Source: an uncultured Methanosarcinales archaeon (GTDB taxonomy: Archaea > Nanobdellota > Nanobdellia > Woesearchaeales > ARS49). Taken from it: a stretch of 59,119 nt of DNA. The stretch's first letter is position 1, and each line of letters begins with the position of its first letter. The position numbers and the translations under genes were made by a program. The notes below the pieces were generated by a model. That model saw nothing but the letters and a program-made list of their open reading frames with translations, had not been told where the DNA came from and did not search any database. Shown here piece by piece: positions 12,392 to 20,235 of this stretch. The stretch is taken from contig CAYIEN010000004.1 in NCBI GenBank assembly GCA_964362535.1, positions 3,571 to 62,689 of the forward strand, in the 5' to 3' direction.

Positions 12392-12511
12392 GCGCCGGTA
12401 GCGAAGCGGTCAAACGCGGGGGACTTAAACGTCCGTCAACTACTTTGGTTGATACGCAACTGAGCAATCCTTTGTCTTAGGACTTCGGAGGTTCGAATCC
12501 TCCCCGGCGCA
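12392..12511 (+). tRNA. trnL: tRNA-Leu(UAA) with 37-nt canonical 37/38 intron (12430-12466)
   Basis: Acceptor GCGCCGG/CCGGCGC plus A73; anticodon TAA at 12426-12428; BHB with central helix CUUA/UGAG and bulges AAC and CAA; long variable arm GTC-TTAG-GAC; T arm GGAGG-TTCGAAT-CCTCC; CCA not encoded. Confidence 0.95.
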
Positions 12512-14860: not shown

Positions 14861-14888
14861 CGAATAGAGTTAAAGTAAATAAGAACAA

Positions 14889-15308
14889 CTACTTCCGCAT
14901 CTTTTCAGCGAGTAGTTTGAACAGTTCAGGTTGAATCTTAAGGATGTCTTTGCCGGTGATGAAGCCGACGAATTGTTCTTTTTTGTTCATGACGGGCAAG
15001 TGTCTGACGTTGTGGTCGCGCATGAGTGTGATTGCTTCTTCGATGTTTTGTTCTTCGCGGACGACGATGAGGTTTGATTCCATGATGTCGTCAACGAGGG
15101 TTTTTGAGGGTAAAACGTTTTTGAGTACGCATTTGCGGACTAAATCCTGTTCGGTGATGATGCCGACGACGCCGGGGCCGTCTTTGACCAATAACGAGCC
15201 GACGTGCAAATCAGACATGATTTTGGCGCATTGCTGCAGGTTCGTGCCTGGGGGAACGGTCACGGGCTGTTTGGTCATGACTTCTTTCACCAGTTTGGTT
15301 GTTTTCAT
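14889..15308 (-). CDS. Stand-alone tandem CBS (Bateman) domain protein
   Basis: VKEVMTK.PVTV, VGSLLV, VGIITEQDL, VRHLPV, VGFITGKDI; start MKTTKL. Confidence 0.93.
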   Translation of the reverse strand: MKTTKLVKEVMTKQPVTVPPGTNLQQCAKIMSDLHVGSLLVKDGPGVVGIITEQDLVRKCVLKNVLPSKTLVDDIMESNLIVVREEQNIEEAITLMRDHNVRHLPVMNKKEQFVGFITGKDILKIQPELFKLLAEKMRK

Positions 15309-15604
15309 TGTGTTCCTTTGCACGTGCAGCCGATTTGGGTGCGGCACGTTCCCTTACAAGAATTAACCATAGGCAAGCCTGTATTTATTGTTTGCGTACG
15401 ATACTGCGCGGCGGTTTCTTCCAAGGTTGGTCGCGGAGCGTCTTTTCCTGCGTAAGGAGTTACGGACAAATCAGTTGGCTCTTGCTGCAGATACGCGGGC
15501 AAGACTCCTCTGCCTGTGTATGCGCGTACTCCGCCTCCGGAATAGGCTTCGCGTGTGCAGCCTCCGCGTGTGGGTCCATCAACACGGACGTCATAATTAG
15601 CCAT
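15305..15604 (-). CDS. Small Gly/Tyr-rich protein with Cys-cluster tail (CxxxC-x5-CxC)
   Basis: Fills the gap exactly: 8-nt overlap with the upstream gene and ATGA overlap with the CBS start. Confidence 0.6.
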   Translation of the reverse strand: MANYDVRVDGPTRGGCTREAYSGGGVRAYTGRGVLPAYLQQEPTDLSVTPYAGKDAPRPTLEETAAQYRTQTINTGLPMVNSCKGTCRTQIGCTCKGTQ

Positions 15605-17507
15605 GGATGAGTATCTCCACGTCGGAGCCGAAGATGCGCTTCAAGTCGGTGAAGATTGCCGATTTCAAAAAGGTGCGGATGGGCACTTTTGCTTTTGCAA
15701 GTGCTTCTTCGAGTTCTTCGAGCGTTGCGTTGTCGATCAGGCCGAGGCTTCCGTCGCTTTTGATGTCTGCCTTTGATACTGTTCGTTGCGGTGCATCCAA
15801 ATCATGCGTGATGAATGCTTTGTCGCCCAGCAGTAAGACTTCGCCGAATTTGCTGCCGAATTTGACGCGGATGCGTGCTTTTTCTAGTTCTTTTCCGCGT
15901 TTGTGCTGCAAGTAATCAATCAAAGCTCGAATAAGCTCGGAGGATTCTTTGCGCACGATGTCAATCTCGGTCTTCGTCAATTTGCCGTCATCGTATGATT
16001 TCTTCGCACGCAACACATTGTCCAAGCTTCGGTGGAATTGTGCCGGTATTTTGCCCGAGTGTACGAGGTTGTGCTCGAATGTTTTCAAAATAGCATCATC
16101 GGAGGTTCGTTCGACCCCTTCGAGCGAAAGGATGTCTCGCACGATGGTGACGGTGTGGTCGTAGGTTTTGATGAACATTTCTTTTTCTTTGATGGCTTCG
16201 ATTTGCGTGAAGAGTTTCTTGACGCGCTTCAAATACTTGTCACAGGAGTCGTACAAGTCATCGATTTCTTTGCCCGTGATTTCTTTTTTGTCGCCGTGTT
16301 CAATGGCTTTTCGGACGTCAAGCACTTTTTGCAACGTATCAACGTCTTTGTCTTCCAAGAGTTTCTCTTTCTGCACAAAGATTTCGCGCAATACTCCGGG
16401 AGTTTCTTTTGGTGCCGGTGGAGCCACTCCGTACAGCATAAGTGCTGCCTGAGATGGAGTTAAGATGCTCCAGAAGAAGTCTTCGACGCCAATCTCCTTG
16501 AGTCGTAACTTTACGCGGTCCAAACCTTGTTCGCCTTGGCTCATGTACATGTCGATTGCTTCGGGGCTGGGCTTGATGCGTCCCATCTTTAACAACTGCT
16601 TCCAGGGCATGAAGATGCCTCGGTCGTAGAACGGGATGCCGTCGCGCAACATCGTAAAGTAAACCGCGTTCGCGTCCTTCAATCCTTCCCAGAAGTCTGT
16701 CAAGATCCAGATTTGGATGTTGATTTTGTTTTTGATGCCAGTCATATCGCCGGCGTCCATGCCCATGCCGATGATGATGCTTCGGAGCTTGTCTCGTAAT
16801 TCTGCGCGCGTCATCTTTTTGACGTCAGTATCATCGACAACAAGCCAGACGTCGATGTCGGATTGGGGCGTTGCTTTGCCGGTCACCATCGAACCAGCCA
16901 AGACGTACGCGACAACATACTTCTCAAACTTCTTCAAGACCATTTGCTTGTGGATTTCAGCCAATTTGATTGCGCCGAGCATTCCTCTGTCGAAGACAGG
17001 AGCGCACATGCCGATGACGTTCAACAGGTCGTATTTGCTGTCGTAGCAGCTTTGCCAGACTTCAGAAAGAATAACGACCTGAGGAAGTAGCTTTTCGTCA
17101 GTTTCTTTCGCATCTTTTGCAATAATTGTTGACAGCTTATCCTTGAGTTCCTGCTTGGTCATCTTCTGACTATCGGAGTCGTCAACCAAAACGAGTACGT
17201 GGACTTTGTCTTTGTTTTCTTTGAATCGTTTGATTTCTTCCGCTTGAATTTCGGGAGGGAGATTCGTTGCGGGTTCTTTTGGCGGCGGAAGTAATCCGAT
17301 GCCGACGATGTATTTGTCAAACTTTTCAAGAATCTTTTTTTGGAAGACGTCAACCTTTTCCTTAATTTGCTTCAGTTGTTCTTGTACTTCGGGCGGTAAT
17401 TGTGCGAGCGGGTCAGGCGTAGGTACAACGGGTGTTGCGTTCAGGGGTTCTTTTGCGTACGAGCCTGTTTCTTTTGTTGATTCTTTTGATGTTTTGGGTT
17501 TTGCCAT
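15597..17507 (-). CDS. Tandem minimal nucleotidyltransferase (degenerate plus intact) fused to HEPN-like domain(s)
   Basis: Internal duplication (LEKFDKYIV/LKKFEKYVV, LVDDSD..KMT..EL.DKL); second copy has GS...SDIDV; RKAIEH (Rx4H) in the following helical bundle; SD AGGAGG. Confidence 0.8.
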   Translation of the reverse strand: MAKPKTSKESTKETGSYAKEPLNATPVVPTPDPLAQLPPEVQEQLKQIKEKVDVFQKKILEKFDKYIVGIGLLPPPKEPATNLPPEIQAEEIKRFKENKDKVHVLVLVDDSDSQKMTKQELKDKLSTIIAKDAKETDEKLLPQVVILSEVWQSCYDSKYDLLNVIGMCAPVFDRGMLGAIKLAEIHKQMVLKKFEKYVVAYVLAGSMVTGKATPQSDIDVWLVVDDTDVKKMTRAELRDKLRSIIIGMGMDAGDMTGIKNKINIQIWILTDFWEGLKDANAVYFTMLRDGIPFYDRGIFMPWKQLLKMGRIKPSPEAIDMYMSQGEQGLDRVKLRLKEIGVEDFFWSILTPSQAALMLYGVAPPAPKETPGVLREIFVQKEKLLEDKDVDTLQKVLDVRKAIEHGDKKEITGKEIDDLYDSCDKYLKRVKKLFTQIEAIKEKEMFIKTYDHTVTIVRDILSLEGVERTSDDAILKTFEHNLVHSGKIPAQFHRSLDNVLRAKKSYDDGKLTKTEIDIVRKESSELIRALIDYLQHKRGKELEKARIRVKFGSKFGEVLLLGDKAFITHDLDAPQRTVSKADIKSDGSLGLIDNATLEELEEALAKAKVPIRTFLKSAIFTDLKRIFGSDVEILIHG

Positions 17508-17518
17508 GGGTTGTCCTC

Positions 17519-18259
17519 CTAACGGATAATGATTTGTTCGAGTGTGTGGGTGATGCTGGTCGTGCCCGCGCAGATGTTCATGAATGTCGTAATCGCATCG
17601 GTGCCGGTCTTGATGATGTGCAGGACAAAGTTGAACGCGACGTCGTGCAGTCCGTTTTGTGCGGGCTGGAAGTGGAACGAGTTTCGTAAGTCTGCGATGT
17701 TGTGGTCGCGGATGGTTTCCATCCAGGCGAGTGAGAACGCGAATGCTTTTGCTTCTTCATCGCGTTGGTCTCGGAGTGGTGCGGTCATGGCGTGGCCGAT
17801 TTCGTGGCCGAGCACAAGCATGACTTCTGCTAAATCTCCGTGACGGACGAACACATCAGACACAGCTTTTCCAAATCGGTTTTGGCAGAATCCTCGAATG
17901 CTGTCAGTACATCCCGGACCGAATCCTTTTGCGAAGTCTTCATCGTTGCAAATATGTACAAGAATGTCGTTGGGGAATTTTGCGCCTGTTCGTTTTTCAA
18001 ACGTTTCTTCAATCAGGGGCATGAGTTCTTCGCGGTTGTTCATCCACTTTGTTGGAATGCCGGTCAAGAAGGGTTGTGCGCTGAAGTAGGTGTGCGCTTC
18101 GCTGTGCATCGTGACAGGAGTTTCGCGGTCTTTGTGCGCGGTGTAGCTCATTGCTGAACTCAAATAGTTACCGAGCGAGCCACCCATAGAGGCATAGTTT
18201 CCGCTCGAAGAATAGCCTCCTCGGCCGTACCCTGTTCCCGCTGACATTCCGTTATACAT
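17519..18259 (-). CDS. HExxH zinc metallopeptidase, ImmA/IrrE-like, with Gly/Ser/Tyr-rich N-terminus
   Basis: LGHEIGHA followed by EEAKAFAF third-ligand helix. Confidence 0.65.
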   Translation of the reverse strand: MYNGMSAGTGYGRGGYSSSGNYASMGGSLGNYLSSAMSYTAHKDRETPVTMHSEAHTYFSAQPFLTGIPTKWMNNREELMPLIEETFEKRTGAKFPNDILVHICNDEDFAKGFGPGCTDSIRGFCQNRFGKAVSDVFVRHGDLAEVMLVLGHEIGHAMTAPLRDQRDEEAKAFAFSLAWMETIRDHNIADLRNSFHFQPAQNGLHDVAFNFVLHIIKTGTDAITTFMNICAGTTSITHTLEQIIIR

Positions 18260-18265
18260 TGGTGT

Positions 18266-18472
18266 TTATTTTCGCAACGCGTCTTCCAATTTCTTGGGTG
18301 CGGCTTTTTTGGCTTCGGATTCCAAATCTACTCCGAGCTCTTTGAGTGATTTCAAGTGTAATTGCATGAGTTGTTCGACAACGCCGAGTAATCGAATGAA
18401 TTCTTCTCGTTCTTTTGCAAGAGTCGTTAATGCTCCTTTGTGGAAGCCGATTTGTTCGTTTTTGTCAGTCAT
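18266..18472 (-). CDS. Small conserved coiled-coil protein
   Basis: EQIGFHKGALTTLAKEREE..R helical pattern; SD GGAGG. Confidence 0.75.
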   Translation of the reverse strand: MTDKNEQIGFHKGALTTLAKEREEFIRLLGVVEQLMQLHLKSLKELGVDLESEAKKAAPKKLEDALRK

Positions 18473-18617
18473 GGGAATCCTCCGGACAGAGTTGTCATAG
18501 TATGTTCTTCTAAGACTGCTATGAATTTAAGCGTAAGTGACAGAAAAGTCATAGTTTTTTGGTTGTTGATAGCTTCACTCCATAATAGATGGTAAAGTGT
18601 CATAATGTTTATAACGA

Positions 18618-19475
18618 GTGTCAAGGTTTCGCGAGGGGATGGATGCCTGGCAAGAGCCTGAGGATAGTGATGAGCAGGATGACTCGTCTGATGATGCTGA
18701 GTCTTTCGCGAAGGAATTTGATGAATTCTTGGAAGAGAGGGAGTTGGGTCTGACTGTTGATGAACATGTTTATTTGCAGAATGTCATCTTGCATGTCACC
18801 AAGGATTTTCCCGTTATGGAAGGGCTGATGGATATTGAGCACGAAACCATTAATGACAAGGTGATGCGGCTGTATATGGAAAAAGAGTCGCATCCCGAAA
18901 AAAGCACAGCGCACCAGGAATATATGAGGGCGGCTGCGGAAGAAAAATTGGTGTTGATGATGCAGTACCCGTTGTGCATGAGGCCTGATGCGTTGGATGA
19001 TCTCGGGCTCGCGCTTATTGAGTCGGGAATGGCTGACGTTGATGAAGATCGGGTGAATGTGTACTACGGGGTGTTGGAAGATTTTTTTGATTTGTGCTGT
19101 GTCACGCAGAAATACGCTTCGTTGGTGAAGTCGCTGGAGCGTGCGCTTCGTGACGGGGATATTGCTGACGCGGATAATCTGAAGGAATTATTGAGTGAGG
19201 ACATTCTTGGTTACACACGCAGCCAGCTTGGCATTCCTCTTGAGAAGGATGAATTGGTCCGCAGGCATTTGTGCGTCGCGAAGGACAACGCGCTTGAGAC
19301 CGTGCTGACATGCGCGATGGATGCGTCGCCGGAACAGCGCGATGTGTATTTGGAACGGGCGACGAGGATTCTCGAGTATGATGTGACATTCGGGTTCAAG
19401 GAGGAAGATGATGTCGACCCGGTTGATTATTCTTGGGCGAAGGAATTTGCAGAATCGTTGAAGAACACGAAATGA
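18618..19475 (+). CDS. Highly acidic helical hypothetical protein
   Basis: 285-aa D/E-rich ORF; TATA-like TTTATAA upstream; start may be the ATG at 18639. Confidence 0.65.
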   Translation: MSRFREGMDAWQEPEDSDEQDDSSDDAESFAKEFDEFLEERELGLTVDEHVYLQNVILHVTKDFPVMEGLMDIEHETINDKVMRLYMEKESHPEKSTAHQEYMRAAAEEKLVLMMQYPLCMRPDALDDLGLALIESGMADVDEDRVNVYYGVLEDFFDLCCVTQKYASLVKSLERALRDGDIADADNLKELLSEDILGYTRSQLGIPLEKDELVRRHLCVAKDNALETVLTCAMDASPEQRDVYLERATRILEYDVTFGFKEEDDVDPVDYSWAKEFAESLKNTK

Positions 19476-19689: not shown

Positions 19690-20235
19690 TTAGAGTTTTG
19701 CTTTTTTGGCTTTGTCTGAGATGATTGCTGAGTTGCCAGTAGGGTCGGTGATGGTGAGAATGACTTTTTCTTCGCCGCAGAGAATTCGTAATATCTTTTT
19801 CAAGAGGTTTTTGGCTTTTGTTTTGTCTGCGTCGTCTTCTGCCGAGTCTCGGAGGTGTTCGACTTGTTCTTTGATGCGGTTGATGATGCCTTCAATGTTG
19901 GTGATGTATCCTTCGCTCGCGACGCCAGGGTCGATGCTGCCGATGTTTGCGATCTTGATGCTGCCTTCGCTGCTTCGCACCAAGCGCACGTTGAGGTCTT
20001 CCAGCGAGCTGATTTCGAACGTCCACTTGACGGGTTCTTTTTGTTCTGCTGCTTCGACGTCTGCTTTGCGGAATCCGCAGGCGGAGCATTGCATGGAGAA
20101 CACGAATAGCTTTCCGAAGTAGGGCACTTCTGTGTCGGCCTCGGTCATGCTTAACGTCTTTTTGCCGCAGACCGGGCATTGCTCGCCCTCTAATGTCTGG
20201 ACGTTGTTCATCTCATTGTTTTCTTTCTTTACCAC
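19690..20235 (-). CDS. zpr1: ZPR1-family zinc-finger protein
   Basis: CPVC, VPYFG, CSACGFR..DV, DLNVRLVRS, GYITNIEG, DPTGNSAI. Confidence 0.93.
   Translation of the reverse strand: MVKKENNEMNNVQTLEGEQCPVCGKKTLSMTEADTEVPYFGKLFVFSMQCSACGFRKADVEAAEQKEPVKWTFEISSLEDLNVRLVRSSEGSIKIANIGSIDPGVASEGYITNIEGIINRIKEQVEHLRDSAEDDADKTKAKNLLKKILRILCGEEKVILTITDPTGNSAIISDKAKKAKL

Follow-up and report, generated by a model that had tools for sequence, protein, structure and literature searches.

What does a protein assembled from the two domains of a toxin–antitoxin (TA) pair do in an archaeon with a very small genome? The protein, nt636, is encoded in a 59,119-nt stretch of DNA, hereafter the window, from an uncultured Methanosarcinales archaeon (GTDB Archaea; Nanobdellota; Nanobdellia; Woesearchaeales; ARS49; assembly GCA_964362535.1, contig CAYIEN010000004.1, positions 3,571-62,689 of the forward strand). 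This groundwater archaeon has a 909-kb genome that is 98.6% complete. The nt636 gene is the third of five co-oriented minus-strand open reading frames (ORFs) at 14889..18472, these and all other cluster coordinates being positions within the window. A first-pass annotation had read the cluster as a nucleotide-signalling or stress operon. We consider it reasonably probable that nt636 is a housekeeping, single-chain MNT2-HEPN2 nucleotidyltransferase (NTase) of a cellular target, with a probable CBS regulator in its own order. This interpretation is built on what we observed of the architecture, conservation, distribution and synteny of the protein. The gene and the segments of its product are as follows.

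15597..17507, minus strand: nt636, 636 amino acids, internally duplicated MNT-HEPN fusion
16974..17402, minus strand: degenerate NTase copy (residues 36-178), GS and DxD lost, VDDSD kept
16572..16982, minus strand: intact Pol-beta-type NTase (residues 176-312) with G205 S206, D217 x D219 and D225 D226 x D228
16200..16571, minus strand: HEPN of the UPF0332/AF0298 type (residues 313-436), profile and fold match to 2hsb
16296..16313, minus strand: RKAIEH (R399-H404), an Rx4H-like motif at residues 399-404
15873..16199, minus strand: second, degenerate HEPN-like bundle (residues 437-545), with KKSYDD where the first HEPN has RKAIEH
15600..15872, minus strand: C-terminal alpha/beta domain (residues 546-636), from predicted secondary structure, no family

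The order of domains is thus degenerate MNT, intact MNT, HEPN with Rx4H, degenerate HEPN and the alpha/beta domain (546-636). Both duplications were recovered when slices of the family alignments were compared with hhalign. The two NTase segments (36-178 and 176-312) matched with a probability of 99.4% (E = 7e-22, 111 columns) and the two helical segments (313-436 and 437-545) with a probability of 97.3% (E = 1.9e-11), while four cross-domain comparisons that served as controls gave a probability of ~1%. The NTase catalytic motif hG[GS]...D-x-[DE] is present as AGS (205-206) and SDIDV (216-220). Pfam found a single NTase domain, NTP_transf_2 (PF01909; residues 191-242, 27.6 bits against a cut-off of 21). 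A model of nt636 predicted by AlphaFold 2 (AF2) from a 41-sequence alignment had a mean pLDDT of 85.7 and a pTM of 0.52. Its best Foldseek matches in the PDB were enzymes with an NTase plus a helical domain, namely ANT(9) (6xz0, E = 4.6e-4), KNTase, AadA, DrrA, GlnE and MntA antitoxins, and a VIA structural search matched its NTase to the MNT structures 8xeh_E (Z 10.1) and 2rff (Z 9.1).

The top row of the VIA search was the archaeal HEPN protein AF0298 (2hsb_A; Z 11.1, root-mean-square deviation (rmsd) 2.5 Å over 101 residues, model residues 332-435), followed by further HEPN rows (1ufb 8.2, 3o10 8.2, 1wol 7.5 and 4nqf 7.4); helical bundles with Z below ~13 may be generic, and it is the sequence match that carries weight for the HEPN assignment. 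From sequence alone, the nt636 family profile matched 2hsb_A with E = 4.8e-7, aligning RKxxEHG to REESDYG, and it also matched MntA (5yep, 3.1e-4) and the HEPN entry 9xbd (4.1e-4). A single-sequence PDB search of nt636 gave no match at E <= 1. For model residues 431-543 the VIA rows were generic bundles, including the HEPN toxin 8xdj (Z 7.3). Profile and fold thus agree on AF0298 (UPF0332, HEPN-T, PF05168) as the protein that the helical domain matches best; AF0298 is a stand-alone protein of 126 amino acids with RxxxxY, whereas the HEPN of nt636 is fused and duplicated and has His at the place of the Tyr.

These results bear out the first-pass annotation on the domain layout, that is, a degenerate and an intact NTase (GS, DID), a helical domain carrying RKAIEH and a second bundle without the motif, as judged by hhalign and motif alignment. 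The annotation had made its proposal hinge on the helical domain being a HEPN, and the AF0298/2hsb profile and fold matches place it there. Its description of nt636 as a domesticated MNT-HEPN was likewise upheld by the HEPN profile (E = 4.8e-7) and fold (Z 11.1), and by the universal occurrence and housekeeping contexts described below. On the evidence of profiles and the predicted model, nt636 is a domesticated derivative of an MNT-HEPN TA module and amounts to an MNT2:HEPN2 assembly joined covalently, one NTase site of which is putatively live.

Motif residues were counted in one genome per family, giving 29 loci from the order of the host and 26 loci from other orders. G205, S206, D217, D219, D226 and D228 were invariant (29/29 and 26/26), and D225 was present in 29/29 and 23/26 loci, respectively. 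Around the HEPN motif, Glu403 (29/29 and 26/26), Lys400 (29/29 and 25/26) and His404 (28/29 and 22/26) were nearly universal. Arg399 was kept in 26/29 loci of the order and in only 10/26 of the others, where it was replaced in the remaining 16 (Tyr in 8, Phe in 4, other residues in the rest). The residue that follows the motif Arg is Lys rather than N/D/H. No Tyr follows position 404 in any of the 41 aligned sequences, the window reading RKAIEHGDKKE; five of the 41 have Tyr at 404 itself. Because the NTase residues are invariant, Arg399 varies across orders and no Tyr follows the motif, the conserved activity of nt636 would be nucleotidyl transfer and not that of a canonical ribonuclease (RNase). 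With its conserved form [R/Y/F]KxxEH, the HEPN cleft looks more like a site for binding or regulation than like a canonical RNase. As for the RNase activity and conserved Rx4H motif that the first-pass annotation had envisaged, the Arg (26/29) and His (28/29) are indeed conserved within the order, and the loss of the Arg beyond it (10/26 retained, 16/26 replaced) argues against an RNase as the conserved activity.

A homologue of nt636 was found at E <= 1e-10 in 301/301 sampled genomes of the class (299/299 without the unpublished G242 and G243), most of which had one long match and one weaker match to a short paralogue. In a second class-wide sample 37/37 genomes carried a homologue, and some orders had only a single NTase-HEPN form of ~350-400 amino acids instead of the double form. 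A word-indexed search returned 4245 homologous clusters at E <= 1e-3 among 8000 candidates scored, with ~60% identity over the full length; the named clusters were nearly all from Woesearchaeota or Nanoarchaeota, with the JGI name 'UPF0332 family/predicted nucleotidyltransferase'. An exhaustive search of representatives gave 703 clusters at E <= 1e-3, among them proteins of 1083-1340 amino acids. The genome of the host has one long copy and a 269-residue single MNT-HEPN paralogue on another contig (L082:2095-2904), which is 32% identical to nt636 over residues 182-437 and has Ser-Lys where nt636 has Arg-Lys, with the His kept. Elsewhere nt636 often lies beside ribosomal and other housekeeping genes (S13/S4/S11/RpoD, DNA ligase, Dus, PyrBI). 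The patchy, mobile-element-associated distribution of TA genes was not seen in either sample. We conclude that nt636 is a core gene of the class, inherited vertically and essentially single-copy, and not a patchy mobile module, and therefore a housekeeping enzyme rather than an addiction or defence module.

Its retention in every sampled relative makes nt636 look less like a switch for stress or defence than like an essential housekeeping enzyme that transfers nucleotides. In Woesearchaeales and their relatives, whose tiny genomes span about 0.5-2 Mb, a 636-residue protein that is kept in every sampled genome at ~60% identity is very likely essential. The interest of nt636 lies in the universality and high conservation of a protein that is functionally a blank. 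It would show clearly how a TA module can become part of the core machinery of the cell, and its target, whether protein or RNA, would close one of the few gaps in DPANN biology that span the whole lineage.

Ten homologues of 1083-1340 amino acids (P0177, P0184, P0195, P0197, P0199, P0207, P0218, P0239, P0247 and P0257) carry the double MNT-HEPN at the C-terminus, after ~700 residues. Pfam found TPR repeats in the N-terminal extension of nine of them and none in P0239. The TPR extension hints at protein–protein docking.

A group of this kind has been described. According to the accessible text of Makarova, Wolf and Koonin 2019 (PMC6393860), a DPANN-specific cluster consists of 'MNT fused to HEPN ... 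typically in house-keeping context', and its unusual conservation is read there as a sign of an important role. Like nt636, their cls.004259/NEQ050 is an MNT-HEPN fusion confined to DPANN; it is unusually conserved, lies in housekeeping neighbourhoods and is given no role in that text. The first-pass annotation had regarded the combination seen here as undescribed. This was only partly so, as that report already covers a DPANN MNT-HEPN fusion in a housekeeping context; its accessible account does not mention the internal duplication, C-terminal domain, CBS link, TPR-fused forms or short paralogue of nt636. A literature search joining Woesearchaeota, nucleotidyltransferase and HEPN found no paper.

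Domestication of this domain pair also has precedent. In the portion of Anantharaman et al. 2013 (PMC3710099) available to us, MNT-HEPN modules are described as domesticated into protein-modifying NTases (GlnE, KNTase, DrrA) in which HEPN is a substrate-binding domain. In ANT(4'), ANT(9), AadA, GlnE and DrrA, as in nt636, a helical substrate-binding domain derived from HEPN follows the NTase, and these enzymes supply the best Foldseek matches (6xz0, 1kny, 6yx5, 1v4a). GlnE, too, has tandem NTase modules. Identity to nt636 is only 10-16%, no family-level match in Pfam or NCBIfam exceeded its cut-off, and nt636 keeps Rx4H whereas those families lack it in the part of PMC3710099 that includes Table 1.

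On the reading of nt636 as a housekeeping NTase, the intact domain would bind NTP-Mg2+, most likely with ATP as the nucleotide by analogy with MntA, ANT, GlnE and DrrA. It would then move a nucleotidyl group onto a hydroxyl, the cellular target being either a protein or an RNA 3' end. The HEPN pair would provide a cleft for substrate binding or regulation, the part it plays in kanamycin nucleotidyltransferase and GlnE, and would not act as an RNase. Within the order, the CBS-pair protein from the downstream gene would tune this activity as an adenylate sensor. Substrate and nucleotide, like CBS binding and the co-transcription of the genes, are what we infer. The candidate regulator is encoded at the distal end of the cluster.

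14889..15308, minus strand: CBS-pair protein, 139 amino acids from the ATG at 15308 (longer ORF 14889-15347)

The start at 15308 is backed by ortholog alignment, and Pfam recognised two CBS stretches (PF00571, E = 5.6e-32), corresponding to two tandem CBS motifs. Synteny was examined in 80 best-hit loci from 80 species, some of them cut at contig ends, and in an evenly drawn set of one genome from each of 29 other families of the order. A CBS gene lay directly downstream of nt636 in 37 of the best-hit loci; in the evenly drawn set it was directly downstream and co-oriented in 13/29, with one further, convergent case. Within the family of the host a CBS gene was found within 1.5 kb in 8/18 genomes. 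Because the genome of the host encodes only two CBS proteins, this adjacency is far above chance. We conclude that nt636 and CBS form a recurrent pair in the order, and the CBS protein is a plausible adenylate-sensing partner of nt636 there; the recurring neighbour is a concrete candidate regulator. Bacterial COG2905 proteins combine CBS and cNMP-binding domains with a DUF294 NTase that has a HEPN-like C-terminal domain, and the DUF294 family is usually fused to CBS. The nt636-CBS pair is similar in that a Pol-beta NTase is accompanied by a CBS sensor; Pfam DUF294 matched weakly in 9/41 nt636 family members. The CBS domains of COG2905 are fused, whereas those of the nt636 partner are encoded by a separate neighbouring gene.

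In 27 of the 37 CBS orthologs that follow nt636 there is a C-terminal CxxC...CxxC zinc-ribbon-like extension, which is absent from the protein in the window and nine others. Instead of this extension, the clade of the host has a separate small ORF with a Cys tail. In many relatives two or three tandem genes of ~165-208 amino acids with no Pfam family (cluster c2, 27 members) follow CBS or nt636, as at L007, L010, L014, L020, L035, L046, L048, L053 and L054; they are absent from the window.

Several points weigh against this assignment. The domain arrangement of nt636 is uncertain given the AF2 pTM of only 0.52, and the likeness to cls.004259/NEQ050 is one of description in the accessible text of PMC6393860. 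The window and 26/29 families of the order keep both the Arg and the His of Rx4H, and there is near-universal conservation of His404, Lys400 and Glu403; the HEPN cleft may therefore have a role in catalysis or ligand binding, even as an RNase. Such retention is also unusual, as HEPN domains fused to MNT usually lack Rx4-6H according to the available part of PMC3710099. Finally, CBS was not adjacent in 15/29 families of the order (it lay on the opposite strand in one more), and none of the 26 loci from other orders had a CBS gene within 1.5 kb, so that CBS is no obligatory subunit of nt636.

The alternative that survives best, which we still hold to be rather unlikely, is that nt636 acts on RNA, in template-independent 3'-end tailing or RNA repair, with a HEPN pair that binds or processes RNA for ribosome or tRNA biogenesis. 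It draws on the Lys-rich, disordered N-terminal tail of nt636, on a weak Pfam match to the MTPAP-like central palm in 30/41 family members, on the ribosomal proteins, RpoD and Dus that are neighbours in some genomes, and on the typically RNA-directed nature of HEPN domains as set out in the accessible text of PMC3710099. The closest characterised relatives by sequence and fold (MntA, ANT, DrrA, GlnE) modify proteins or small molecules, which speaks against RNA as the target. No RNA-binding domain was found in the C-terminal part by PDB sequence or Pfam searches, where the best PDB sequence match of residues 540-636 had E = 0.79 and no consistent Pfam family emerged. The genome also has a canonical archaeal cca gene (PF09249, 114.9 bits) on another contig, and we rejected the identification of nt636 as the CCA-adding enzyme.

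Could nt636 instead be a self-contained TA or abortive-infection switch like fused FhepTA, in which a HEPN RNase is held in check by self-AMPylation and freed on ATP depletion or stress? We regard this as unlikely. In its favour, the window and most of the order keep RKAIEH intact, and the NTase is nearest by sequence to MntA, the best named NCBIfam match (4.9e-6, far below its cut-off); PADLOC gave weak matches to candidate defence NTases (PDC-S09, 8.4e-5). In type VII HepT/MntA the same two domain families and an Rx4H-like motif occur. The accessible part of Yao et al. 2026 (PMC13000451) shows that fused MNT-HEPN toxins exist on mobile elements and places the AMPylation site of HepT and FhepTA at a Tyr beside RxxxxH. 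No such Tyr lies beside the motif of nt636. Its presence in 301/301 genomes and its housekeeping contexts are unlike those of patchy, mobile TA genes, and the duplicated 636-residue protein compares with about 276 amino acids in the TA counterpart. Its HEPN is of the UPF0332/AF0298 type and not DUF86/HepT, and the Arg is variable across the class, aromatic or other residues taking its place in 16/26 loci. HEPN RNase sites are composite across a dimer, whereas only one of the two HEPN copies of nt636 has the motif. Identity of ~60% across the order would also be atypical of fast-evolving toxins.

There remains the five-gene operon, in which MNT-HEPN would be gated by a CBS adenylate sensor and by HExxH proteolysis to serve stress or nucleotide signalling. 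The other genes of the cluster and its possible expression signals, the latter read from sequence, are listed here.

18266..18472, minus strand: cc68, conserved small protein of 68 amino acids, first gene of the cluster
17519..18259, minus strand: pep246, 246 amino acids with HEIGH, an HExxH...EE zincin
15305..15604, minus strand: small Tyr-rich ORF with a Cys tail, 99 amino acids, start overlapping the nt636 stop by 8 nt
18525-18530, minus strand: TTAAAT box, possible promoter ~53 nt upstream of the cc68 ATG
18478-18483, minus strand: GGAGGA, possible ribosome-binding site 5 nt upstream of the cc68 ATG
14865..14888, minus strand: T-rich tract, possible archaeal terminator directly after the CBS stop

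The ORF list confirmed the five co-oriented genes, with gaps of 6 and 11 nt and overlaps of 8 and 4 nt, and the position of RKAIEH at 16296-16313, all as first described. Because the spacing is tight, the five genes are probably co-transcribed in the host, and the TTAAAT box, GGAGGA and T-rich tract would fit a single transcription unit with one probable promoter and terminator. The order cc68-pep246-nt636 is also kept in the family of the host while the flanks vary, with cc68 upstream of nt636 in 18/18 genomes and pep246 in 17/18. Among the 80 best-hit loci cc68 was upstream in 23 and pep246 in 22. Beyond the family this gene order was seen in one genome of another family and in 22/80 best-hit loci, and among the genomes sampled it is fixed only within the family. 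With CBS downstream in 13/29 families, these are the observations that recommend a conserved operon. They are opposed by the evenly drawn set, in which cc68 and pep246 were upstream of nt636 in 0/29 families.

The two upstream genes have distributions of their own. pep246 was found in only 36/151 genomes of the order (35/150 without the unpublished G371) and in 3/71 of a class sample. Where its position relative to nt636 was known (21 of the 36 genomes) it lay next to nt636 in 4 and away from it in the other 17, of which two are ambiguous because nt636 sits at a contig start. cc68 is near-universal in the order (134/151 genomes; 132/149 without the unpublished G371 and G376) and usually lies in translation-related neighbourhoods. 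In 20 loci outside the family (L158-L177) it was followed by a DUF371 protein in 13/20, other neighbours being a DUF1947-PUA protein, a DRG-type GTPase (MMR_HSR1+TGS), aIF5B and HerA. cc68 may be a member of a translation-related gene set. This putative coiled-coil protein of the first-pass annotation has no NCBIfam or PADLOC family and only sub-threshold Pfam matches, and in the ESM Atlas cc68 and pep246 fell only in unnamed Nanobdellota and Woesearchaeota clusters. PADLOC gave no match for cc68, pep246, the small ORF or the CBS protein.

Proteolytic gating had been pictured with an IrrE/ImmA-type peptidase. In pep246, H152, E153, H156, E168 and E169 are invariant in 22 sequences, and an AF2 model (pLDDT 80.3) predicts helices at 143-157 and 165-186 with HExxH on the first and the Glu ligand on the next, the arrangement of a zincin of the gluzincin type. 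Residues 9-55 fall below a pLDDT of 50 and form a disordered Gly/Ser/Tyr-rich N-terminal tail of ~55 amino acids. VIA matched M3 oligoendopeptidase F (2h1j, Z 10.2, rmsd 4.5, 172 amino acids) and DPP III (5zum, Z 9.9), and nearly all of its top 50 rows were zincin metallopeptidases or HExxH-fold proteins (M3, M49, M1, M32, thermolysin-type). Foldseek returned nothing at E <= 1e-3, and no curated Pfam peptidase family reached its cut-off. By these motif and model comparisons pep246 is a compact gluzincin-like zincin. Pfam M78 (PF06114) did not match at E <= 0.1, and neither the 50 rows from VIA nor those from Foldseek included an IrrE/ImmA structure. IrrE/ImmA peptidases have a partner helix-turn-helix (HTH) repressor gene adjoining; no HTH family matched at E <= 0.1 in ten proteins scanned around the cluster. 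These searches gave no support for the IrrE/ImmA assignment, although a member of that family could be absent from such lists.

We conclude that the five genes do not make up a conserved system but stand together as a peculiarity of the lineage, cc68 and the zincin having joined it mainly in the family of the host and the Tyr/Cys peptide only in the closest relatives. With cc68 and pep246 at 0/29 elsewhere, and cc68 normally beside DUF371, PUA, the DRG-type GTPase or aIF5B, the stress or signalling operon is quite improbable; of the neighbour conservation it presupposed, CBS stands in 13/29 families and cc68 and the peptidase stand in the one family.

The 99-residue ORF itself gave no tblastn match in the 80 best-hit loci. 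In 7/7 of the closest genomes examined there is nonetheless a small ORF whose start overlaps by the same 8 nt; it is Tyr-rich, fast-evolving and 46-99 amino acids long. The tail CxxxCRxxx(x)CxC occurs in 6/7, Y[AST]G in 4/7 and the start M-x-(x)-Y in 6/7, the seventh reading MVDNIY. Codon changes at conserved Cys, Gly, Arg and Ser are synonymous, from which translation of the ORF is concluded; on these comparisons the small Cys-tail ORF is a real gene, confined to the seven closest genomes examined. A further and highly improbable reading of nt636 would have its live NTase nucleotidylate tyrosines in disordered, Tyr-rich tails of neighbour-encoded proteins, with the HEPN pair docking them and CBS reporting adenylate charge. 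The candidate targets would be the Gly/Ser/Tyr tail of the zincin, in which Y11 is invariant and Y2 nearly so, and the small translationally coupled peptide, with its M-x-(x)-Y start and Y[AST]G motifs. If true, a housekeeping Tyr-AMPylation circuit would have arisen from a TA pair, possibly reaching core targets in all Nanoarchaeia.

The 288 nt that separate nt636 from CBS were considered as a possible structured RNA and rejected, as they had no Rfam match at E <= 1 and folded no better than their shuffles (z 0.05). ARAGORN reported zero tRNAs across the whole window, and Rfam identified a 120-nt tRNA at 12392-12511 on the plus strand (47.1 bits, full model), which evidently contains an intron or insert. 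Divergent from the first gene of the cluster is a plus-strand gene (18618-19475) for an acidic 285-residue protein with no family, which adjoins a ZPR1-type zinc-finger protein (TIGR00340, 2.4e-50) encoded at 19690-20235 on the minus strand.

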